A stretch of DNA of 64,000 nucleotides, from assembly GCA_965214095.1 (NCBI GenBank), contig OZ243938.1:1120001-1184000 (forward strand). The letters run 5' to 3'. Under the pieces are notes generated by a model. That model was not told the origin of the DNA and did no database searches. It worked only from the letters and a program-made list of their open reading frames with translations. This stretch comes from Candidatus Poribacteria bacterium. GTDB taxonomy: Bacteria; Poribacteria; WGA-4E; WGA-3G. How positions within the stretch are numbered: position 1 is the stretch's first letter; each line of letters begins with the position of its first letter. Both the position numbers and the translations under genes were made by a program. Shown here piece after piece: positions 5,576 to 43,193 of the stretch.

Positions 5576-6769
5576 ATGCAACAACTTCCTGATGCATCAG
5601 GACATTTCGGACAGTTCGGTGGAAGATATGTCCCTGAAACCCTTATGCCAGCATTGTTAGAACTTGAAGAGGCTTATATAACTCTCAAAGATAACGCAGA
5701 TTTTCAAAAAGAATTTCAGTATTATCTGAGCGAATATGTAGGTCGTCCGAATCCGCTATATTATGCAGAACGCTTAACACAATCACTCGGTGGGGCAAAG
5801 ATTTATCTGAAAAGGGAAGACCTGAATCATACAGGTGCACACAAAATCAATAGTGCAATCGGACAAATCTTGCTGGCAAGATGGATGGGGAAAAAACGGA
5901 TTATTGCAGAAACAGGTGCCGGACAGCACGGTGTCGCTACTGCAACTGTTGCTGCAAAGTTTGATATGGAATGTGAAGTCTATATGGGTGAAGAAGACAT
6001 AGAACGTCAAGCACTCAATGTATTTCGCATGCAGTTGATGGGAACGAAGGTTGTTCCTGTGAATTCTGGTTCACGCACATTAAAAGATGCGATCAATGCA
6101 TGTTTCAGAGATTGGGTTACCAATGTTCGTACTACATACATGCTATTAGGTTCAGTTGTTGGAGCACATCCTTATCCGATGATTGTCAGAGACTTTCAAG
6201 CAGTTATTGGACAGGAAGCGAGAAGTCAGATTTTGGAACAGGAAGAGCAATTACCAGACTGTGTTGTCGCCTGTGTTGGTGGCGGCAGCAATTCTCTCGG
6301 AATGTTCTATCCATTCTACCATGATGAATCGGTTCGTTTAATCGGTGTTGAAGCAGCTGGTGAAAGTATTCGTAGCGGACGACATGCTGCACCTCTAACT
6401 TCAGGCAGTGTCGGTGTATTTCACGGAGCCAAATGTTACTTGTTGCAGGAAGATGATGGACAGATAACCCCTGCACACTCAATCTCTGCCGGGTTAGATT
6501 ATCCGGGTGTAGGACCAGAACACAGTTATTATCGTGAAATAGGTAGAGCGGAATATGTTCCAATTACGGATAAGGAAGCAGTGGAAGGTTTCCAATTGCT
6601 TTCTGAAACCGAAGGTATTATCCCCGCGTTAGAATCGGCACATGCCATCGCATATCTCCGAGAACTTGCACCTCAACTTGGAAAAGAAAAGACTATTGTG
6701 GTGTGTCTATCTGGACGTGGTGATAAAGATGTGTATACTATTGCGAAGGAATTGGGTATTACACTATAG
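5576..6769 (+). CDS. trpB: Tryptophan synthase beta chain
   Basis: [14 protein letters not shown] (PLP lysine), [32 protein letters not shown]. Confidence 0.97.
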
Positions 6770-6861
6770 CAATTATCAATACATACTGAATTTACGTTCA
6801 TTTGATCTTGCAATCAATTTAGGTTAGTCCGATTCTACTTCGTTTGCTATAGACTTGACAC

Positions 6862-6890
6862 TTGCAACGGTTCAATGCTACTGCTATAAT
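6862..6890 (+). promoter_or_regulatory. Sigma70-type promoter
   Basis: TTGCAA-17 bp-TATAAT with extended TG, upstream of a GAGG SD and ATG 6920. Confidence 0.65.
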
Positions 6891-33350: not shown

Positions 33351-36005
33351 TTATAAATGGTTCTCAATAATTTTGGTAGTAGCTGCAATTGCATCGTTGA
33401 CTTTATTTATGTCTTTTCCTCCACCTTGTGCCAATTCAGGACGACCACCACCGCGTCCATCTGCAATTTTTGTAATCTCCTGTATCAATTTACCAGCATT
33501 CAAGCCACGTTCTTTTACAAGATCAGATGTAACGCCAACGATAAAGGCTGCATCTTTTCCTAATACCGAAGCAAGCGCGACAACACCAGATTCCAATCGT
33601 GTTTTGAGTGTGTCTACCATCTGTCTGAGACTGTCTCTATCGGTTTTTTCTATACACGCCGCAACGACCTTGACACCATCAACAAGTGTTGCACCATCAA
33701 CTAATGAACCAATGTTTGAGAGTGCACTCTGGCTTTTCAACTTTTGTATTTCTTGTTCCAATTCACGCTGCTCTTGAAGTAATTGTTGTATTCTTTCTGA
33801 TAAACCGGATTTTGGTGTTTTTAGTATATTTGAGACATCGGATAGAATTATATCATCATCTTGGATAGTTGTGAGCGCATCACTTCCCGTAAATGCTTCA
33901 ACACGTCGGACACCTGCTGCAATACTGCTCTCACTGATCAATTTAACGTAACCGAGTTCACCTGTAGCATAGACGTGTGTGCCACCGCATAACTCAATAC
34001 TATATCCTCCTGCTTGCACTACCCTAACCATATCACCATATTTATCACCAAAGAACGCTAACGCGCCTTTTTCTTTTGCCTTATCCAGCGACATCTCGTT
34101 GATCTCAATTGTGTCGTTTTTTCGTACCTTCTCGTTAATGTAAGTCTCTATCTCCTGGAGTTGTTCCGTTGATACGGCTTCAAAGTGATTAAAATCAAAT
34201 CGTAATCTGCCAGACTGAACAAGCGATCCTGCTTGTGCTACGTGTGTGCCTAAGATACTTCTTAATCCACTGTGAAGCAGATGCGTAGCAGTATGACTTA
34301 CAGCAATTGCATTACGTCTATCACTATCAATTTGTGCTTTGACATTGGTAAATGGCGTAATTTCGCCTTCAAGAACTTTACATTTATGCACAAATAGATC
34401 TGGTGAAGGTTTGATTGTGTCAAGCACTGTGAGTTTTGCGTCAGAACTCTCAAGTAAGCCTATATCTCCAACCTGTCCACCTGATTCACCATAGAATGGT
34501 GTGTGTCTAAGCAGAACTGATACCTCATCATCTTGTTTTGCGCGTGCTACAGATTCAGAACCAGAAATCAATGTAACGATCTCTGTATCAATCATATAGT
34601 CAGTATATCCGACAAATCCTGTGCTACCCGTTTCTTTCAGCACTTCAGCATATAGTGAAACTTCATCGTCATTTACGCCGCTACCCGCAGCTTGCCATGC
34701 TGCTCTACCCCGTTCACGTTGTGCAGACATATTCTCGTCAAACCCAACTTCATCAACGGTGAAACCGCGTTCTCGTGTAAGCAGTTGTGTCAAATCAAGT
34801 GGAAAACCGAAAGTATCGTATAATTCAAAAGCACGTTTGCCATCAAGTTCAGTTTTACCTTCTGTATTTAGCGTACCAATAGACTGTTCAAGGATGTCTA
34901 ATCCACGTGCAAGCGTTTGATGAAAACGATTCTCCTCTGCTTGAATTGTGCGTGTAATAAAATCCTTTCGTGGTAATACGTCTGTGAAAACATCACCGAG
35001 TAAATCAATAACTTTATCAACGAGTCGGTATATGAATGGTTCATTCATATCCAGTTTTTTGCCATAGAGCACTGCGCGGCGTAAAATTCTACGTATCACG
35101 TATCCGCGTCCATCATTAGATGGCATGACTCCGTCACCGATTGTGAATGTCAAACAACGGATATGGTCTGCAATTACTCTATGTGGAAGTCCATCAATGT
35201 CATGACCGTAGTCCTTACCTGTCATATCAGAGATTGTTTCAAGTAGTGGAATAAATAAATCTGTTTTATAGTTAGAGTCAACGCCTTGTAGAATAGAAGT
35301 TATTCTTTCAAAACCCATGCCGGTGTCTACATGTGTAGCAGGGAGTGGGTCAAGCGTACCGTTCTGATCTCGATTATATTGAATAAAGACAAGATTCCAA
35401 AATTCACGAAATCGTTCGCTTGTATTGGGACCAGCATCAGGGTCATTTGCAGTTTCAGGGAACGCGTCTACGCCTAAATCAACAAATAGTTCACTACACG
35501 GCCCACAGGGACCGGTCTCACCCATTTCCCAGAAGTTATCCTTATCACATCGACGAATGCGTTCAAGCGGTAGATCAGTTTCCTGTAGCCAAAGCTTTTC
35601 TGCTTCGTCATCTTCAGTATACACAGTTGCCCAAAGCACTTCTGATGGAATTTTCCACAACTCTGTAACTAATTCCCATGCAAAAGCAATGGCTTCCTGT
35701 TTATAGTAATCCCCAAAAGACCAGTTTCCGAGCATCTCAAAAAAAGTGTGATGACTTGGCGAGTGTCCTACCTCTTCAAGGTCATTGTGTTTGCCACTAA
35801 CCCGTAAACATTTTTGTGTGTCTACAGCACGTTTAAATTCTCGTTGTCCAATACCAAGGAATACATCCTTGAATTGGTTCATTCCTGCATTCGTAAACAA
35901 TAAAGTTGGGTCATCGGCGGGAATTAAAGAGGCACTTGGAACGACTGTATGTCCCTTTGTTTTGAAATATTCTAAGAAACTTGCTCTGATTTCATCTGAT
36001 GTCAT
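33351..36005 (-). CDS. alaS: Alanine-tRNA ligase
   Basis: DPTLLFTNAGMNQFK, FEMLGNWSF, HTATHLLH, ELCGGTHV, GGGRPELAQGGG; start MTSDEIR. Confidence 0.98.
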   Translation of the reverse strand: MTSDEIRASFLEYFKTKGHTVVPSASLIPADDPTLLFTNAGMNQFKDVFLGIGQREFKRAVDTQKCLRVSGKHNDLEEVGHSPSHHTFFEMLGNWSFGDYYKQEAIAFAWELVTELWKIPSEVLWATVYTEDDEAEKLWLQETDLPLERIRRCDKDNFWEMGETGPCGPCSELFVDLGVDAFPETANDPDAGPNTSERFREFWNLVFIQYNRDQNGTLDPLPATHVDTGMGFERITSILQGVDSNYKTDLFIPLLETISDMTGKDYGHDIDGLPHRVIADHIRCLTFTIGDGVMPSNDGRGYVIRRILRRAVLYGKKLDMNEPFIYRLVDKVIDLLGDVFTDVLPRKDFITRTIQAEENRFHQTLARGLDILEQSIGTLNTEGKTELDGKRAFELYDTFGFPLDLTQLLTRERGFTVDEVGFDENMSAQRERGRAAWQAAGSGVNDDEVSLYAEVLKETGSTGFVGYTDYMIDTEIVTLISGSESVARAKQDDEVSVLLRHTPFYGESGGQVGDIGLLESSDAKLTVLDTIKPSPDLFVHKCKVLEGEITPFTNVKAQIDSDRRNAIAVSHTATHLLHSGLRSILGTHVAQAGSLVQSGRLRFDFNHFEAVSTEQLQEIETYINEKVRKNDTIEINEMSLDKAKEKGALAFFGDKYGDMVRVVQAGGYSIELCGGTHVYATGELGYVKLISESSIAAGVRRVEAFTGSDALTTIQDDDIILSDVSNILKTPKSGLSERIQQLLQEQRELEQEIQKLKSQSALSNIGSLVDGATLVDGVKVVAACIEKTDRDSLRQMVDTLKTRLESGVVALASVLGKDAAFIVGVTSDLVKERGLNAGKLIQEITKIADGRGGGRPELAQGGGKDINKVNDAIAATTKIIENHL

Positions 36006-36029
36006 ATTGACACATCTCCCATATACCCA

Positions 36030-36059
36030 ATTATAGTCTAATCTTAGTTTAGAAGTCAA
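36030..36059 (-). promoter_or_regulatory. Putative alaS promoter
   Basis: TTGACT-18 bp-TATAAT on the minus strand. Confidence 0.55.
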
Positions 36060-36089
36060 GAACAAAAGAATGTTTGTTCTGATTTTTAG

Positions 36090-36713
36090 TTAGAATACCT
36101 GATGAATTATCTTCAAGATCAACTCAGAATCGTATCCTCTACGAGCTAAATATCCATGTAATCTACGTTGTGCCACCTGATTAGTCAGATGTTTATATTT
36201 CTTTCCCTGTTTTTTTGCAATTTGAAGGGCTAATCTTGCTTCATCTTCAGCATTAACTTCATTTACCACCTGTTCTGCTGTTTTTCTGTCAACACCTTTT
36301 TCAATGAGTTCCATTTTAAGAAGTTTCTGTCCTCTGGGATTTGATTTTAGACGTCGTTGAACCCATTTCTCTGCAAACTGTCGATCACGTATGTGTCCAG
36401 ATTGAATTAATTCCGTTACGATTGTTTCTACTGTTTCATCACGAAACCCTTCTTTTGCAAGGTGCCGTGACATTTGTGATTTACTATATATTTCTTCTTG
36501 TAGCATTTCAAGGGCATACTTTTTAGCACGCATCATTTCTTCTGCTGTAATCAGTTTTTCAATAACTTCTGCTTCAATTTCTAAACCGATTCGCAATCCT
36601 AAATTTTCAACAAGCATTGTAGGAACAGATAGTTGATGTGTGTCATCTAAATATATCTTTAGGAGTGAGGAGTCATTTAATTGCGGTTGGATATCTGTTA
36701 TTTTCTGTTTCAT
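36090..36713 (-). CDS. recX: Regulatory protein RecX
   Basis: GHIRDRQFAEKWV, RGQKLLKMELIEKGV, YLARRGYD; recX-alaS synteny. Confidence 0.88.
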   Translation of the reverse strand: MKQKITDIQPQLNDSSLLKIYLDDTHQLSVPTMLVENLGLRIGLEIEAEVIEKLITAEEMMRAKKYALEMLQEEIYSKSQMSRHLAKEGFRDETVETIVTELIQSGHIRDRQFAEKWVQRRLKSNPRGQKLLKMELIEKGVDRKTAEQVVNEVNAEDEARLALQIAKKQGKKYKHLTNQVAQRRLHGYLARRGYDSELILKIIHQVF

Positions 36714-36732
36714 TCGTGCTGATTTCAAAATA

Positions 36733-36760
36733 TATGGGCAGATATAAGAATCCGCCCATA
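36733..36760 (-). terminator. Hairpin, possible terminator
   Basis: TATGGGC...GCCCATA stem followed on the minus strand by TATTTT. Confidence 0.4.
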
Positions 36761-36840
36761 GTCTGATTTTTAGGTATCGGTATAACTAACAATCCGAACT
36801 GAATATACAGAAACTCTATCTCTGTGATTATATTCAGTTA

Positions 36841-37470
36841 TTAGCTACCGTTAGAACCTGCCCATAAAGCACCGCGCTGTAGCAACGTGCTAAACATCTC
36901 ATGTTGGCATGCTGCAGGATCATGTCCAAGTGCAAGGTAGAATACTTTTCCTTCACCCCAATTCTTTGTCCATGCTACTGGCATAGCTCCACCTTTCCAC
37001 AAAGCAGAAGCAAGCACGTGATTACGCGGGTCGTAATCAAGGATGTATTGTTCATCTTTCACGACAAATTCGTCAAGTCCCTGTGTGATTTCATGCTCAT
37101 TGTCAACAATACTCACCTGATAATCCCTATAACGTGGATGTGTAGTAAAGTAACCACCAACCATAGAGCGATATTCAGGACAACCTCGAAATGAATCTGC
37201 GGCAGAATGGATACCGACATAACCTTTACCTGAAGCGACGTGGTTTAACAATCCATTTTTTTGCGCATCTGATATTTTACCCACCGTATAATAGAAAACG
37301 ATAAGATCATACGGATCTAAGTTCGGAGAAACCAATGCATCCAAATCGTCTTCAACAGTCGTCAGTTCAAATTCGTCTCGTTGTGAAAGTGATTTGACAA
37401 TTTCTTCACTGCATCCCTTCCAGTTATGAATTGCACCACCTGCAAAAACGAGTGTATTTATCTTTGCCAT
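36841..37470 (-). CDS. ThuA-like domain protein
   Basis: GKGYVGIHSAAD, GGYFTTHP, DEQY, WGEGKVFYLALGH. Confidence 0.88.
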   Translation of the reverse strand: MAKINTLVFAGGAIHNWKGCSEEIVKSLSQRDEFELTTVEDDLDALVSPNLDPYDLIVFYYTVGKISDAQKNGLLNHVASGKGYVGIHSAADSFRGCPEYRSMVGGYFTTHPRYRDYQVSIVDNEHEITQGLDEFVVKDEQYILDYDPRNHVLASALWKGGAMPVAWTKNWGEGKVFYLALGHDPAACQHEMFSTLLQRGALWAGSNGS

Positions 37471-37593
37471 TTGTAACCTCCTAATGAATTATATCCGAAT
37501 TATAACATACATCCATCAAAATTACAACTATAGACGTTTTAAAGGCAGAGGCATTCAATTGTCGATATTCGTTGTGTCCATTCATAATATATA

Positions 37594-37623
37594 AGATATA
37601 GCATGACTTCTCATGCTATATCT
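37594..37623. terminator. Perfect 13-bp hairpin downstream of the S55 gene
   Basis: AGATATAGCATGA-CTTC-TCATGCTATATCT. Confidence 0.5.
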
Positions 37624-37822
37624 GCTGGACTTTACCTCAAAGTTTATATTAGATTTTGCTCATGTCAAGAATGAGCGCGGACAGGAATTAAACCCATGTG
37701 GTTATTGTCTTCATTAAAGCAATAGCACTTAAATTATACATGAGCCAATCCGTTTTATGTGTCGTATTGCCTCATAACGTGAATTTGAGATAAGAAATCA
37801 GTTCTATCAACTGAAACCTTTG

Positions 37823-39598
37823 TCACTCTATAAAAATAAAGTCTGTGATTTCACCCGTAACAACGTACTCGTCGAGTATGAGTGTTTCTTCAACTTCTTC
37901 AAAAGTGTTATTACTGTCCAGCGTCAGTTTGATTGTTCCAGGTGCAGGTATTTCATCTTGCCGTGCGTCAATAAGCGCGTCTAGTGTTTGGGGGAGTTTT
38001 TCATCTTCAGCGTCGAAATCAAAATCAAAATCGAAGTCAAATTCAAGATCAAACAAATCAGCAGTTTCGGCTTCTACTTTCAGTGATACACCACCCGTTC
38101 CAAAATCGGATGGGACAAGAATCGATATGTCTTTTTCAAACGTCCGTTCATCTTCTTCGGCAATACTCCAATGCGGTAATAGCACGACCGTGAACGTCAC
38201 CCGTGTTCCCGTTTGAATGCCATCCGGCACCTTGACTTCTATAATCTCAGCTGACGCTATCTGCGGTTTGTCCATTATTTCAATAGATACCGACTTCAAA
38301 GTCGCCTTTCCCGCAGCATTTTTCAGCGGGTCTGTGAACTCGTTCACAGCGTAATTGAGATTTTCATAAATATCAAAAAACGGGTCGTTTGTAATATTTC
38401 GCCACCTTTGCGTGTAGGTTTTCTTCGTTTCCATAAACGATAGAATTATTTTTCCTTCTGATGTAGCACGCGTCCACTCTTGCCGGAGCGAGTCTGTTGA
38501 TGACGCAACAATAGGCGCAATTGCCCATTCTTGACCATAAGCGACTTTAGTTGTTGTCTTTATCGGTTTATCGCTATTGACCGGGTGATAAGATACATCA
38601 ACCGGTATCGTGTCTGGTGCTGCACCAAGTTCTCCGACAACCGCGGCACTCAAATCCTTCGTGAGTGTGCCAATCGGATCGCCATACGCAATTACAGATT
38701 TATAGGGATTTTGTAAGTTTGCAACAATACCTGCCGTCGTTGCCCGATAGACTGGTATTGAAATCTTGCCATCGTATCGAAGTGAATGCCCAAACGCCAC
38801 AAACGTGTCATCGGAATACACTTGTGTTACCGTGCCGTAAGCAATAACATCTACAACATCGCCTATAGCGATAGCAACGCCTATCATGTCACCAGCTTCT
38901 AAATTACCTGAAGCAGCAGGTGCGTTTGCAGGCGCACCCCCAATATCCGAAACGAAATCAATCGCATCAAATCGTGATGACTTCAGACGCTTGCGAATGT
39001 CTTCAATGCGACGCGGGTTTATACCACTGAAAACCAACGGTGTTTTGACAGCCTGCTGGCGCATCTGTACACCCGGTGCTCCTGGAGCCGCCATAAACTC
39101 ACCTAACGGAAGGTGATCTCGCGCAGCTTCCATTGCATCAATCGCAGTTGCCCAAAAACGATGCGGAGCTGTACCGAAATTCACACCATACGCCAACGCT
39201 CCCATCACGCGACCCGGCGGACCCACAGGACTGCCAGACATACCCGAAGCAATGCCACCGAGTTCTTCTATGATCGGGTCCGTCAACTCAAACTCATAGA
39301 GCGGAAAACCTAAATTAAAATCGCGTATCCCAAGATATTTTACTTTGATTGACACTTTATCTGTTCCATCAAGAACAGTGATAAGTTGATGCTCACTATT
39401 CAACGTTAAACCACGAGCTTCCGACTCATACATGCCCGTCAGAGACACTTCCGACAATATCGGTAATCCCGATTTACCCGAATCCGAACTCATATCATCC
39501 ACGACTTCTTCCGGCAGAGGCTCCGGTGCTTCATCGGAACCACAACCGAATTGAAATATGACAAAAATAACACTCAATAAACAAAGTATATGTTTCAT
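37823..39598 (-). CDS. SpoIVB peptidase S55-domain lipoprotein
   Basis: Lipobox QFGC; ASGMSGSPV...GALAYG; GTVT...FVAFGH. Confidence 0.82.
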   Translation of the reverse strand: MKHILCLLSVIFVIFQFGCGSDEAPEPLPEEVVDDMSSDSGKSGLPILSEVSLTGMYESEARGLTLNSEHQLITVLDGTDKVSIKVKYLGIRDFNLGFPLYEFELTDPIIEELGGIASGMSGSPVGPPGRVMGALAYGVNFGTAPHRFWATAIDAMEAARDHLPLGEFMAAPGAPGVQMRQQAVKTPLVFSGINPRRIEDIRKRLKSSRFDAIDFVSDIGGAPANAPAASGNLEAGDMIGVAIAIGDVVDVIAYGTVTQVYSDDTFVAFGHSLRYDGKISIPVYRATTAGIVANLQNPYKSVIAYGDPIGTLTKDLSAAVVGELGAAPDTIPVDVSYHPVNSDKPIKTTTKVAYGQEWAIAPIVASSTDSLRQEWTRATSEGKIILSFMETKKTYTQRWRNITNDPFFDIYENLNYAVNEFTDPLKNAAGKATLKSVSIEIMDKPQIASAEIIEVKVPDGIQTGTRVTFTVVLLPHWSIAEEDERTFEKDISILVPSDFGTGGVSLKVEAETADLFDLEFDFDFDFDFDAEDEKLPQTLDALIDARQDEIPAPGTIKLTLDSNNTFEEVEETLILDEYVVTGEITDFIFIE

Positions 39599-39640
39599 AA
39601 CAAATCTCCTTTTTAAATAAATATGAACTTGTTGCTTTAG

Positions 39641-39960
39641 TTAATCAAAAAGCGTAAAACCCCATCTCTCACAATCAGTATATTCGGTTCGTAAACACCG
39701 TCTCCATCCTCATTGAAAGAGAACTGACCTAAAATCGTATCATGGGTTTTGGATACGCGCCAGTGTGTCTCGTATGGACTGTGCGTCCGTATTTTCAGCT
39801 CTTTAATGCCTCAGAAACACATGGACACACGTATAAGTGACAGCGGCAAACGCGTTGGGTTCTGTGCCGTAAGTCTTTTGATACTGTGCGACACACTCAC
39901 GATTGCCGCTGGTTTCATCTGTTGGCAACCATCCCGTGAAAGTGATTGCCCTCAGCAGCA
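39641..39960 (-). pseudogene. Frameshifted 3' remnant of a LivJ-type ABC substrate-binding protein
   Basis: Manual translation across frameshifts: AAEG/AITFTGWLPTDETSGNRECVAQYQKTYGTEPNAFAAVTY.../AENTDAQSIRDTLARI/DTILGQFSFNEDGDGVYEPNILIVRDG...stop. Confidence 0.75.
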
Positions 39961-39994
39961 GTGCAGAAGCATTTAATTATCGATATTCTTTATC

Positions 39995-40034
39995 GTAGGA
40001 GGGGTTTCCAACCCTGATTTAACAACAAAATCAG
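39995..40034. repeat. GTAG-type REP remnant
   Basis: GTAGGAGGGGTTTCCAACCCTGATTT...AAATCAG. Confidence 0.5.
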
Positions 40035-40063
40035 TCGGCCTCGTGCAATTCACGCACCTATTT

Positions 40064-40301
40064 TAACCTAAGTTGCGACCTAATCAATATGTATGTTTAA
40101 TCTCACAAATATAATATTAAGACATATATATAATATCTTATAAAATAATATATTATGGTCTTAATATGAGTAATTATACACAAATTCAACAAATTTGTCA
40201 CATTTAATCTGTTTATGATTTCAAATTAACCATAATCCACATGATGCTTAAGCAAAGTGGTATCTGGACATCAATGATCTTTTAGGTAGCAACTTGGGTT
40301 A
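40064..40301. mobile_element. TIR-bounded miniature element containing a leftward promoter
   Basis: TAACCTAAGTTGCGACCTAA / TTAGGTAGCAACTTGGGTTA (18/20 IR); solo copy of the end at 8698-8717; GTGACA-17-TATAAT on the minus strand at 40201-40173. Confidence 0.7.
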
Positions 40302-40377
40302 TTTTATCCTTTGGAAATGTTTTATTTCACTTTAGGATAAGAAAACTCGACAATTGAATGCCTCTGATTTTAAAGGG

Positions 40378-40504
40378 ATGTGTAAAGTTTTGGCATCAAC
40401 CGCATAATTCGTGGTAGGTGTGAACTCCGATTCCCCACTTGTCACAATTCGGAGATCGCTCATACAAGTTTTTGATCATATTGCGCCAAGAACTTTGCAC
40501 ACTC
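40378..40504. mobile_element. Miniature element (GTGTAAAGTT TIR family) with a degenerate GTAG REP pair
   Basis: GTGTAAAGTTTTGGC...GCCAAGAACTTTGCACAC; inner GTAGGTGTGAACTCCGATT / AATTCGGAGATCGCTCATAC. Confidence 0.65.
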
Positions 40505-40532
40505 AGCGTTAACAAAGTATGATTTGTTCTCG

Positions 40533-43193
40533 TCACTGGCTATAACTATTTGTATGTTCATGTATTTGTTGGCGTTCGCGGTTGGCATGAGGATCTGCCC
40601 GACGTGCTATACCTGTAATCTCATCAACCGATTCATCAGTCTTGAAACGCAAGTAAAGTTTTCTTGACTTGTTTGCCATAGGTGTATTCTTCAATGCACG
40701 ATAACATCGCATCATATTATAGTGAGCATCCAAATCTTCTGGATCGACCTCAATCGTTTTCTGAAAATGTGTTAATGCCGTTTCATACTCACGTTTGAGA
40801 AAGTACATGCCTCCCAGTTGATTGCGAACGCGAGTATCTCGTGGGAATTGTGATGCTGCTTGTTGTAGATGTTGAATTGCCAAATCGTATTTTCCATACG
40901 TCTCTTGTACCAAAGCATAGAAATAATGAACCTTTGCCCGATGAGGATTTCCGGGAGGCAAGATTTTCTGTATCTCAAATGCTCTGTTCAGCATCTCTTC
41001 TGCACTCTTCACGTCACCTTCTTTGATGTTACACCGTGCAATATTCACCCATCCATCCAAGTAACCAGGATCAATTTCTGTAACCTTCCTGAATGCAGCT
41101 TGTGCTTTTCTTAAGTCTCCTTGTAGGAATAGTCCTATACCGTAGTCGTTCCAACGTTCACGAGCATTACCATCCAATGTATCATTAAATGATACATTTT
41201 CTAAATTAGATTTGACATGTAAGGTTGTTCTTACATCTGCCATCATAACAATTGGTAGGTTTGGTATGGACTTGATTTCTCCTGCAACATCAGCAGTATC
41301 ACCAGTCCAAACCCATTTTCCATCGTCATAGCCTTTATCCACCTGATAGTTCGTATCTTCAGGATCGCGAACCCCCGCATAAGCCCACTGTGTATGCCAC
41401 CAGTTGAATTTGCGATAATTGAGTTTTGCTTCTAATGCCAGAGTATCGCCACAATCATCTGGAATAGTGAGCTTGTATCTCACCGTATCTGCGGCACCAG
41501 GTGGAATGGTGCGGGAATACAATACGGTTCGCATTGCCCACGCATTGCGTTTGTTAATTAAGTTACCGCGCTCATCTAACATATAGGCTTGATAGAAGTG
41601 TGCACTCGGATCAACAGGACCATTGCCATCAGGAGCAGCGATCCTACCATTCCAAAACACAATTTTACCATTCTCATCAGTTACCTTCAACTCAAGCCAG
41701 ATATCAAATGCATCAATTGTGCCAGCGGGGAATTGATGTCCAACCCCGCGCGTCCGAACTACAACCTCAATTAACGTGTCCTCTCCTCGTTGGATTGCTG
41801 CACCATTCTTTGGAACAGGTTTTCCATTAGCAAACAGATCTAACGTGATAACATCATTTTTTAAGAAGTCTATTACTGTTTGGAGTTGTTCATCGTGTTT
41901 ATTAACATAAGGGAGTGCAGTATTCGCTGCAGGAAAACGATGACTGTGGACTTTACCCTTTATATTCCCCGCATCTTTTGAGTCAACAAGTGGCATGTGG
42001 CAATCAACACATTTCTTAGCCTTTTCAGGATAATAGAATGAGAGCGCTCCTTGATGTGAAACACCACTCTTCTGCCATTGATCGTAGTCGTTGAAACCAC
42101 GCACCCATTTGAAATTGTTGACCGGAAAGTCAAGATGTACCTTGTGACAAGTTGAACAGAATTCTGCTGTATTATCTCGGTGGAAAGGCTTTAGAAAACT
42201 CTTGCGATGTGGTTCTGGATCAAGCCGAATTAAGTAGTTGTGCAATCCGCGGATAATGCTATTGTCACTTGATGCTAAATCATGTAGAGGAGGATACTTT
42301 ATCACATACCCACTATTTCCCATCGTATCCTTGACTCGTTCAATGGAATGGCAAGCCGTGCATGCTAATCCTGCTTGTGCGGCAGGTGTATGAAGGTTTT
42401 CTCTAATCGGTTTGTCCATAATTCCATTAAGTAGAATAGCGGGATCATGACATCCACCGCACCATTTCGAAGACTGTATACCGTTCACCTCCTGCATATA
42501 GATGATGGATTTGCGGTACCACTGGTTGTTGAAAGATGAAAAATGATGAGCAGATTCGTTCCACTGCTTATAGATATCCGGATGACAACCTTTTGTTGCA
42601 CATGTTTCGGATGTCAGAAAAAAATCAGTCGGAATGAGGTTACCTGTCTCTGTTTCTACAGATGCTGGAAAAAAATGTCCTGTCGTTCCACCACCTTCTT
42701 CATACATACTTGTCGGAGGGAAAGCAGGATTCTTGACAATATAATCCGCGTTAGGAAAATAGTGTTGCGAAACCTTAGCACCTATTGGAAAGAACAGCAC
42801 AAAAATAAAAACCCCAACAATCATCTTTTTTAGAATTGGTGAAATTGTGTCACTGAACTTCAATAGATGGATTGAAAAGAGCAGACTCCCAATGCTTACG
42901 CTGACTATATGTGTAATGAGAACCCAACGGTAAGGAGTTGTCGCACCGACTACCATCAGATAACCACCAGAGATGATTCCAATGATTACTCCTAAGACTC
43001 CGAATTTACCTATACCTGTCAGTTTTCTGAGATGTTTATAAAGATAGATACAGAATGGGATCAGTAGAATAATTCCGAGACCAATATGGAGAAGTACATT
43101 TAAAATATAGAAAAGTGTGGGTTCACCGAAACTGAATAGATATGCACTGTTTAGGAGTAGAATTAGGAAGGCTAATAGTGAAATTTTACGCAT
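40533..43193 (-). CDS. Membrane-anchored multiheme cytochrome c (c554-like) with C-terminal TPRs
   Basis: N-terminal TMs; CATKGCH, CGGCH, CTACH, CSTCH, CVDCH; TPR tail (WNDYGIGL, HYNMMRCY). Confidence 0.85.
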   Translation of the reverse strand: MRKISLLAFLILLLNSAYLFSFGEPTLFYILNVLLHIGLGIILLIPFCIYLYKHLRKLTGIGKFGVLGVIIGIISGGYLMVVGATTPYRWVLITHIVSVSIGSLLFSIHLLKFSDTISPILKKMIVGVFIFVLFFPIGAKVSQHYFPNADYIVKNPAFPPTSMYEEGGGTTGHFFPASVETETGNLIPTDFFLTSETCATKGCHPDIYKQWNESAHHFSSFNNQWYRKSIIYMQEVNGIQSSKWCGGCHDPAILLNGIMDKPIRENLHTPAAQAGLACTACHSIERVKDTMGNSGYVIKYPPLHDLASSDNSIIRGLHNYLIRLDPEPHRKSFLKPFHRDNTAEFCSTCHKVHLDFPVNNFKWVRGFNDYDQWQKSGVSHQGALSFYYPEKAKKCVDCHMPLVDSKDAGNIKGKVHSHRFPAANTALPYVNKHDEQLQTVIDFLKNDVITLDLFANGKPVPKNGAAIQRGEDTLIEVVVRTRGVGHQFPAGTIDAFDIWLELKVTDENGKIVFWNGRIAAPDGNGPVDPSAHFYQAYMLDERGNLINKRNAWAMRTVLYSRTIPPGAADTVRYKLTIPDDCGDTLALEAKLNYRKFNWWHTQWAYAGVRDPEDTNYQVDKGYDDGKWVWTGDTADVAGEIKSIPNLPIVMMADVRTTLHVKSNLENVSFNDTLDGNARERWNDYGIGLFLQGDLRKAQAAFRKVTEIDPGYLDGWVNIARCNIKEGDVKSAEEMLNRAFEIQKILPPGNPHRAKVHYFYALVQETYGKYDLAIQHLQQAASQFPRDTRVRNQLGGMYFLKREYETALTHFQKTIEVDPEDLDAHYNMMRCYRALKNTPMANKSRKLYLRFKTDESVDEITGIARRADPHANRERQQIHEHTNSYSQ

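Follow-up and report, generated by a model that had tools for sequence, protein, structure and literature searches.

A 2.8-kb segment upstream of thuA in a Candidatus Poribacteria genome is probably a mobile insertion cassette-type element derived from an ISAs1-family insertion sequence

A 64,000-nt stretch of a Candidatus Poribacteria genome (the window; positions 1120001-1184000 of contig C1 in the 5.25-Mb genome G000) contains a 2,821-bp segment at 37546-40366, located upstream of the thuA gene and referred to below as the cassette. It is probably a non-autonomous element of the mobile insertion cassette (MIC) type, derived from a 1.33-kb insertion sequence (IS) of the ISAs1 family, moved by a transposase acting in trans and now stranded. 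The cassette is bounded by perfect inverted repeats and a duplicated target, has no transposase gene, corresponds to an empty site in relatives and shares its ends with a parent IS present in sister species. A preliminary description of this DNA had offered two readings of the segment, namely ends without a transposase that serve to carry genes and are mobilised in trans, or a landing pad for serial insertions. The former is favoured by the repeats, the duplication, the empty site and the parent IS described here. The source is an uncultured sponge-symbiont lineage, the genomes of which are crowded with miniature inverted-repeat transposable elements (MITEs). The comparison set consisted of 39 relatives from the same genus (G001, G002, G005, G013, G014, G017, G021, etc.). 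In addition, assembled contigs of four public runs (X5, X6, X7 and X13) were aligned to window positions 35500-42500. These are short-read contigs that break at repeats, and window stretches without contig cover in these runs were left out of the evidence.

The exact 20-bp inverted repeat that had been noticed at a distance of 2.8 kb was confirmed. The sequence CAGAGGCATTCAATTGTCGA occupies 37546-37565 on the plus strand and has its exact complement at 40347-40366 on the minus strand, with the arms 2781 nt apart; no match to such a repeat arose in 100 shuffles of the window. Two perfect copies of the 20-mer exist in the whole of G000, both at this segment. With up to three mismatches, the 21-mer occurs at 15 places in the genome (0 for the reversed control), and the 20-mer with up to four mismatches occurs at 28. 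Since the repeat is rare in the genome, its abundance cannot account for the pairing, and the possibility of a chance pairing of a common sequence, raised in the preliminary description, can be set aside. The 10-nt flanks of the arms, GTTTTAAAGG on the left (37536-37545) and ATTTTAAAGG on the right (40367-40376), form direct repeats with 9 of 10 positions identical in register and the duplicated motif (G/A)TTTTAAAGG. The TTTAAA reported 2 nt beyond each arm is present and is now read as part of this duplication. Random pairs of 10-mers placed 2831 nt apart in G000 matched at 9 of 10 positions in 106 of 2,000,000 cases, or in 35 of 237,438 when both 10-mers were AT-rich, which puts the chance rate of the observed flank match at 5e-5 to 1.5e-4.

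The insertion lies 75 nt upstream of the start codon of thuA (36841-37470, minus strand). On its other side is a MITE of a different family, MITE-B (40375-40504), with ends GGGTGTGTAAAG...CTTTACACAC and a core resembling a repetitive extragenic palindrome (REP); it is outside the cassette, and its first bases are the final two G of the right duplication copy. The ancestral neighbour of thuA on its upstream side is MITE-B. In four of the five relatives examined (G051, G021, G005 and G044), the site is empty and consists of the thuA upstream region, about 9-10 nt and then MITE-B, which in G021 is a 1.2-kb version. What separates the thuA upstream region from MITE-B in G000 is exactly the 2.8-kb segment plus one copy of the 10-mer. 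The fifth relative, G001, carries a distinct mini-element of 57-69 bp near the site. It was considered as a shared insertion and dropped, having different ends and its own 8-bp duplication, GAGAATTA. The empty junction had been expected between thuA and the multiheme cytochrome/TPR gene that follows MITE-B (40533-43193, minus strand). Such a junction does not exist: these two genes adjoin each other in G000 only, and the true empty site is thuA followed by MITE-B.

The same 20-mer bounds elements of 1329-1332 bp in the sister species G021 and G051. The intact copies L045, L049 and L050 contain a single open reading frame (ORF) of 397-421 aa. The 397-aa protein scores 207.7 bits on the NCBIfam model NF033564 for ISAs1 transposases (cut-off 70) and also matches the Pfam domains DDE_Tnp_1_assoc and DDE_Tnp_1 (PF13808, PF01609). 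By this model and domain pair, the parent element is a member of the ISAs1 family. Members of this family are typically about 1.2-1.5 kb long, with a single transposase ORF, short terminal repeats and duplications of 8-10 bp; the parent fits these ranges with 1329-1332 bp, one ORF, 20-bp repeats and duplications of 9-10 bp. The flanks of ten copies of the IS or its derivatives were inspected, and duplications of 9-10 bp were found in six (L041, L046, L049, L050, L059 and a MITE of G000 at C1:3409473-3409634) and were absent in four (L045, L047, L051 and L052). Internally deleted copies of 715, 631 and 627 bp occur as well. No transposase was found inside the segment, either in the list of ORFs, by Pfam or by searches with the IS transposase and NF033564. 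No complete IS copy was found in G000, nothing in the whole genome scored above the ISAs1 family cut-off, and the sole remnant of the IS transposase is a 181-nt internal fragment (C1:3406435-3406615) coding for 63 residues. As G000 has no ISAs1 transposase, the cassette now appears to be stranded.

One IS copy of the family, L059 (G051:C6:96469-99268), is 2800 bp long and has a perfect 10-bp duplication. A 1.46-kb insert coding for a 439-aa UPF0236/ISL3-like protein splits it at IS position ~200, and the same insert also adjoins an IS fragment at a second locus (L060).

The ends of the cassette are of two origins. The preliminary description had taken both for ends of a miniature element, which holds for the right end; on the left, the end is formed by 112 nt of the ISAs1-family IS, left as a stub. 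This stub (37546-37657, plus strand) comprises the left repeat and the untranslated leader, is 92.9% identical to positions 1-109 of the 1329-bp IS of G021 and breaks off just ahead of the ribosome-binding site of the transposase, the gene of which is absent. The same 112-115 nt recur many times in G051, G021, G005 and G050, there with a transposase ORF after them. The stub contains the hairpin reported earlier inside the segment (37594-37623; 13-pair stem, -11.7 kcal/mol, z = -6.8). On the minus strand, the hairpin is followed by a T-rich tail and is terminator-like; it is also found in IS copies of the two relatives inspected. The breakpoint of the stub is abutted by MITE-C (37658-37746), an 89-bp element with terminal repeats of about 9 bp, GCTCATGT...ACATGAGCC, which is multi-copy in many genomes of the genus and single-copy in G000. 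MITE-C was also considered as the 3' fragment of a tRNA or tmRNA, i.e., an attachment site. This idea was rejected: ARAGORN predicted no gene in 36500-41000, Rfam gave just two sub-threshold chance matches, and the alignment reveals a small element with terminal repeats.

The right end is formed by MITE-A (39964-40366, plus strand), a copy of a 162-bp MITE of the ISAs1-family parent. Over its left 102-106 nt, it shares 87-91% identity with copies in G000, G051 and G021; over its right 67 nt, identity with the MITE copies of G051 and G021 reaches 100%, and the right terminal repeat of the cassette is its outer end. The inner left repeat (39964-39983) has three mismatches. Copies of 161-162 bp are found in G000, G021 and G051, and the G000 copy mentioned above, at C1:3409473-3409634, has a 9-bp duplication. 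MITE-A is thus short, non-coding and multi-copy, with IS-type terminal repeats and duplications at other copies, as is characteristic of MITEs. MITE-A itself lacks a target duplication, and its flanks, AGCAGCAGTG and ATTTTAAAGG, differ. The REP noted inside the segment corresponds to a REP-like hairpin in MITE-A near 39995-40015, and its motif is present at 47 places in the genome with up to two mismatches. Nested in MITE-A is MITE-D (~40069-40300), an AT-rich element of about 232 bp with terminal repeats AAGTTGC[G/T]ACCTAA, which is 86% identical to copies in G050. Its 9-bp flanks, ATTTTAACC (40060-40068) and ATTTTATCC (40301-40309), match at 8 of 9 positions, and contigs of X6, X7 and X13 connect 40058 to 40300, which represents MITE-A without MITE-D. 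The nested terminal-repeat element with a promoter towards the cargo is therefore present as an element, and the putative promoter inside MITE-D (40201->40173, minus strand; GTGACA-17-TATAAT), which faces the cargo, is the best promoter-like site, a consensus match at 11 of 12 positions.

Outward flanks of the IS and MITE-A copies (L041-L067 and window 40367-40400) were also compared. Six of 41 have a MITE-B end no more than 40 nt away, with two more near degenerate ends; approximately nine have GTCAA[G/T] some 17-22 nt from the repeat, and four have AAAACTAAATAACCCT in common. Taken together, these patterns hint that the IS may prefer certain targets.

The cargo gene (37823-39598, minus strand) is intact and encodes a protein of 591 aa that resembles the S55 (SpoIVB) peptidases, with an N-terminus of the lipoprotein type and the serine motif GMSGSP. 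The Pfam family PF05580 matches residues 105-137 only, with E = 4.6e-4 and 20.7 bits against a gathering cut-off of 25; the SpoIVB entry in the PDB matches with E = 0.013, and NCBIfam gave no match to the protein. In the nearest protein-atlas clusters, PF05580 is carried by 37-90% of members, and the nearest cluster is commonest in Candidatus Poribacteria. An S55 peptidase gene had been named in this position; the intact gene stands, and the S55 label is weak, with a PF05580 score below the gathering cut-off, so the predicted protein is called S55-like here. The gene had also been described as visibly more GC-rich. Its GC-content of 45.5% is indeed higher than the 41.9 ± 2.8% of 1275 long ORFs of G000, but the difference is modest (90th percentile). 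Orthologs are as GC-rich (46.5%), so that composition tells little, and GC-content was dropped as an argument for a foreign origin.

Orthologs of the cargo gene were found in 3 of the 39 relatives only (G014, G017 and G053), with identities of 75-77% at the nucleotide level and 73-74% at the amino acid level; the four closest relatives do not have the gene. The gene was seen in no relative at the thuA locus without the repeats, an arrangement that would speak against a cassette: all three relatives have it elsewhere, and for G014 and G017 the locus was found to be other than thuA. A search around the G014 and G017 orthologs for the 20-mer with up to five mismatches found none flanking the gene. 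Paralogs with about 45-51% amino acid identity occur throughout the genus. The best match in metagenome_contigs had 73% amino acid identity (4 loci), and viral_contigs contained no closer copies.

Upstream of the cargo gene is the stub of a solute-binding protein gene (39646-39963, minus strand), which retains the last ~102 codons of a protein with Peripla_BP_6 and dockerin domains. Pfam and tblastn bear out its earlier description as a pseudogene of an ABC transporter binding protein. Positions 39646-39949 code for residues 497-598 of a 599-aa protein, with one in-frame stop and one frameshift. The DNA of the stub is 82-85% identical to intact genes of G014, G013 and G002, and the homology ends at 39963, which is the boundary of MITE-A. 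Homology that reaches up to the MITE boundary, together with a MITE-A devoid of its own duplication, is expected if the outer ends were used.

The contigs of the other public runs permit the host genes and the cargo to be compared separately. Host contigs, from the thuA side and the multiheme side, differ from the window at 162 of 2025 nt and 177 of 1982 nt in X6 (91-92% identity), at 132 of 1570 nt and 88 of 1116 nt in X7 (~92%) and at 169 of 2008 nt and 84 of 1124 nt in X13 (92%). The thuA-side contigs of these three runs cease to match at 37527, and the multiheme-side contig of X6 starts at 40519; the thuA contig of X13 has the empty-site pattern. The cargo contigs are much closer to the window, with 28 differences in 2047 nt for X6 (37753-39799; 98.6% identity), 32 differences in 2047 nt for X7 (the same boundaries; 98.4%) and 52 differences in 2451 nt for X13 (37689-40139; 97.9%). 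A 323-nt contig of X13 crosses the junction of the IS stub and MITE-C (37548-37690). In X5, host contigs have an identity of ~95-97.5%, and 37545-38362 and 39584-40356 match at ~99%. The cargo, and in X13 and X5 also internal junctions of the cassette, thus occur in other genomes at a much higher identity than the host genes. In the binding-protein stub, X13 has indels that disrupt the reading frame, and in its peptidase gene there is one 6-nt in-frame indel among the indels listed, which is consistent with selection on the peptidase gene alone. Depths of host and cargo contigs are similar within each run, a weak hint that both come from one organism. The peptidase block appears to have been excised at points that vary between genomes. 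Both X5 and X13 carry 2 inserted nt at 39799. Two contig joints of X7, 37570>40300 and 37624>40347, were considered as empty sites or circles and rejected as repeat-end artefacts, each being represented by one contig with sides of 24-25 nt.

The locus is adjacent to a break in synteny. In 12 relatives, thuA, recX and alaS were not found within ~8 kb downstream of the multiheme gene. In nine of those 12, the DNA beyond the multiheme gene is homologous to 581-590 kb of G000 (block Q), with a few kb of other DNA in between in G001 and G021. In G051, G021 and G001, the DNA ahead of thuA corresponds to 574-581 kb of G000 (block P), with which it is homologous. Relatives therefore have the arrangements P-thuA and multiheme-Q, and G000 has P-Q and thuA-multiheme; by this exchange of neighbours, G000 has undergone a reciprocal rearrangement. 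Its breakpoint on the thuA side is at ~40505-40519, past MITE-B and at neither of the repeats. At the P-Q junction of G000 (C1:580998-581073), there are about 60 nt of extra DNA, apparently a small palindromic element with ends loosely like the IS repeat.

MITE-B itself is multi-copy in G000, where copies of about 130-140 bp have terminal repeats of ~20 bp and, between them, a REP-like palindrome. Another, longer repeat family of G000 (e.g., C1:4474326-4474616; ~9 copies) combines a MITE-B end with the IS-repeat variant CAGAGGTATTCAATCGTTGA. At the thuA-upstream site of G021 (L029, G021:C1:888000-895500), a 1.2-kb element with MITE-B-type ends is found at ~5650-6870; it has two small ORFs, one with a weak match to DUF2280 (E = 5.8e-6), and represents a second repeat family enclosing coding DNA. 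In the G000 assembly, contig C2 (32,066 bases) has a GC-content of 64.1% versus 41.1% for the main contig and may be assembly contamination.

The features of the cassette can be arranged into the following history. At a donor locus, a MITE would have inserted into the binding-protein gene, while a decayed IS copy was situated downstream of the peptidase gene. The ISAs1 transposase of another copy may then have paired the two perfect outer repeats, skipping the degenerate inner repeat of the MITE. The 2.8 kb would have moved as a single unit and entered a target of 10 bp beside the older MITE, 75 nt upstream of thuA; the insertion would have duplicated this target. Several observations weigh against this scenario. 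Transposition in trans is something that we infer from sequence, and the target-site duplication contains one mismatch. Evidence for another locus comes from short-read contigs broken at repeats; the contigs of X13 and X5 do not show the outer flanks, and in X6 and X7 the cargo is in another context, with ends at 37753 and 39799 and without the IS stub. A second copy of the cassette junctions was not found in the 39 genus genomes, genome_contigs or viral_contigs (exact junction patterns: 0 in each of the two contig collections).

The question whether such repeats generally enclose cargo was approached in G021 and G051, where repeats were paired by hand from the matches listed (21 and 31, respectively). 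Among these matches, 22 inverted repeat pairs were recognised: nine of ~1.30-1.35 kb, corresponding to the IS, eight of 161-162 bp, corresponding to MITEs, four of 283-715 bp (including 283, 631 and 715) and one of 2800 bp, the IS copy that contains another IS. In these two genomes, pairs of the repeat are found around a transposase, in the 1329-1332-bp IS, and not around different cargo. That none of the 22 listed pairs encloses non-transposon cargo also counts against the proposed history; it implies that capture is rare and that no general capture system operates in G021 and G051.

Other explanations start from the same features. A complete ISAs1-family IS may have inserted upstream of thuA with its duplication and lost the transposase gene, its interior then being filled serially with the peptidase block, MITE-C, MITE-A and MITE-D by insertions, deletions or recombination with other copies. 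Nested insertions are frequent here, with MITE-D inside MITE-A and MITE-C exactly at the breakpoint of the stub; internally deleted IS copies exist, and the 2800-bp IS of G051 keeps its perfect 10-bp duplication in spite of the nested UPF0236-type transposase gene. Several independent events would be required, however, to put 2.3 kb of chromosomal DNA into a 1.3-kb IS, and the right 67 nt are of the MITE type and the left 112 nt of the IS type, yet both share one common duplication. Moreover, the junction of the stub with MITE-C and the cargo are present in X13, the thuA contig of which ends at 37527 like those of relatives with the empty site. The landing pad of the preliminary description thus retains its nested MITE insertions, but as an explanation of the whole segment it is unlikely and is outranked by a cassette moved in trans.

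Transposition in the G000 lineage would be dispensable if a cassette from another Poribacteria species had replaced a resident IS or MITE by homologous recombination in the shared end sequences. This would agree with the 97-99% identity of the cargo in other runs versus ~91-92% for host genes, with the IS left end and MITE-C being single-copy in G000 and multi-copy in relatives, and with the lack of a transposase in G000. The homology arms would be just 112 nt and 67-400 nt long, however, and at the exact target an IS or MITE of the ISAs1-parent family was seen in none of the relatives examined, the G001 mini-element being a distinct one, so we regard such a replacement as improbable. Finally, the segment may never have been one element, if a solo IS end near thuA and an unrelated MITE near the multiheme gene were joined by rearrangement. 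The locus does lie at the synteny break of blocks P and Q, and solo repeat ends exist in relatives. Nevertheless, the breakpoint at ~40505-40519 is past MITE-B, itself a part of the ancestral thuA block, the in-register match of the flanks extends to 9 of 10 positions, and contigs of other runs hold internal junctions of the segment. A fortuitous assembly of this kind is very hard to credit.

In PMC3913671, MICs are defined as elements with inverted repeats and no transposase, usually with a target duplication, which are mobilised in trans. The same source describes MIC231 of Bacillus cereus, for which the IS231A transposase acts in trans, and MIC231A1, the passenger of which is adp, a D-stereospecific endopeptidase gene. 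In PMC4133298, MICs are named next to MITEs as trans-mobilised elements. The cassette resembles the MICs so described in its IS-type repeats, absent transposase, passenger gene and target duplication, and it resembles MIC231A1 in that both passengers are of the peptidase type (S55-like in the cassette). It differs from MIC231 in having an ISAs1 rather than an IS4/IS231 parent, in its ends of two origins (IS stub and MITE) and in a cargo to which a gene stub and two further MITEs also belong; in addition, G000 has no cognate transposase. With IS-type repeats, no transposase, an unrelated passenger gene and a duplication at the outer ends, the cassette is, as far as these features predict, an ISAs1-based example of the already known MIC kind.

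The composites of Tn3-derived miniature elements of Pseudomonas, TIME-COMP, move extra DNA with a transposase supplied in trans, according to PMC4133298. Like the cassette, they are non-autonomous inverted-repeat elements bracketing extra DNA; unlike it, they are of the Tn3 type and were captured experimentally on trap plasmids, whereas the mobility of the ISAs1-type cassette, in contrast to both TIME-COMP and MIC231, is deduced from its DNA alone. The cassette differs from IS and MITE derivatives of the ISAs1 family by the absent transposase and by its chromosomal gene block. A mosaic element with an ISAs1-family IS (ISPmar4) has reportedly been described and is cited in reference lists. As in composite transposons, the outer ends of two IS-derived elements would act together on the DNA between them. 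The cassette nonetheless falls outside that class, having a 112-nt stub and a MITE instead of a complete IS on either side, and no transposase. In a full-text literature search, judged by its result listings, no description of an ISAs1-family MIC was found.

For the annotation of this locus, the results mean that the adjacency of thuA and the multiheme gene stems from a chromosomal rearrangement, and that the "foreign-looking" peptidase gene would owe its position to a cassette insertion. The cassette provides a natural example of non-autonomous IS derivatives packaging a chromosomal gene, in which one can see not just the duplication and the nested history but also the parent IS and the empty site. 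A further, tentative and rather doubtful idea is that the IS stub and the MITE astride a chromosomal gene make up a working shuttle, which spreads an S55-like surface peptidase gene between species of sponge Poribacteria. If so, the insertion of MITEs near decayed IS ends would be a route by which ordinary chromosomal genes are captured by symbionts and exchanged among them. Between runs, similarity is far higher for the cargo than for the host genes, which suggests that such cassettes may add to gene exchange among co-resident symbionts.

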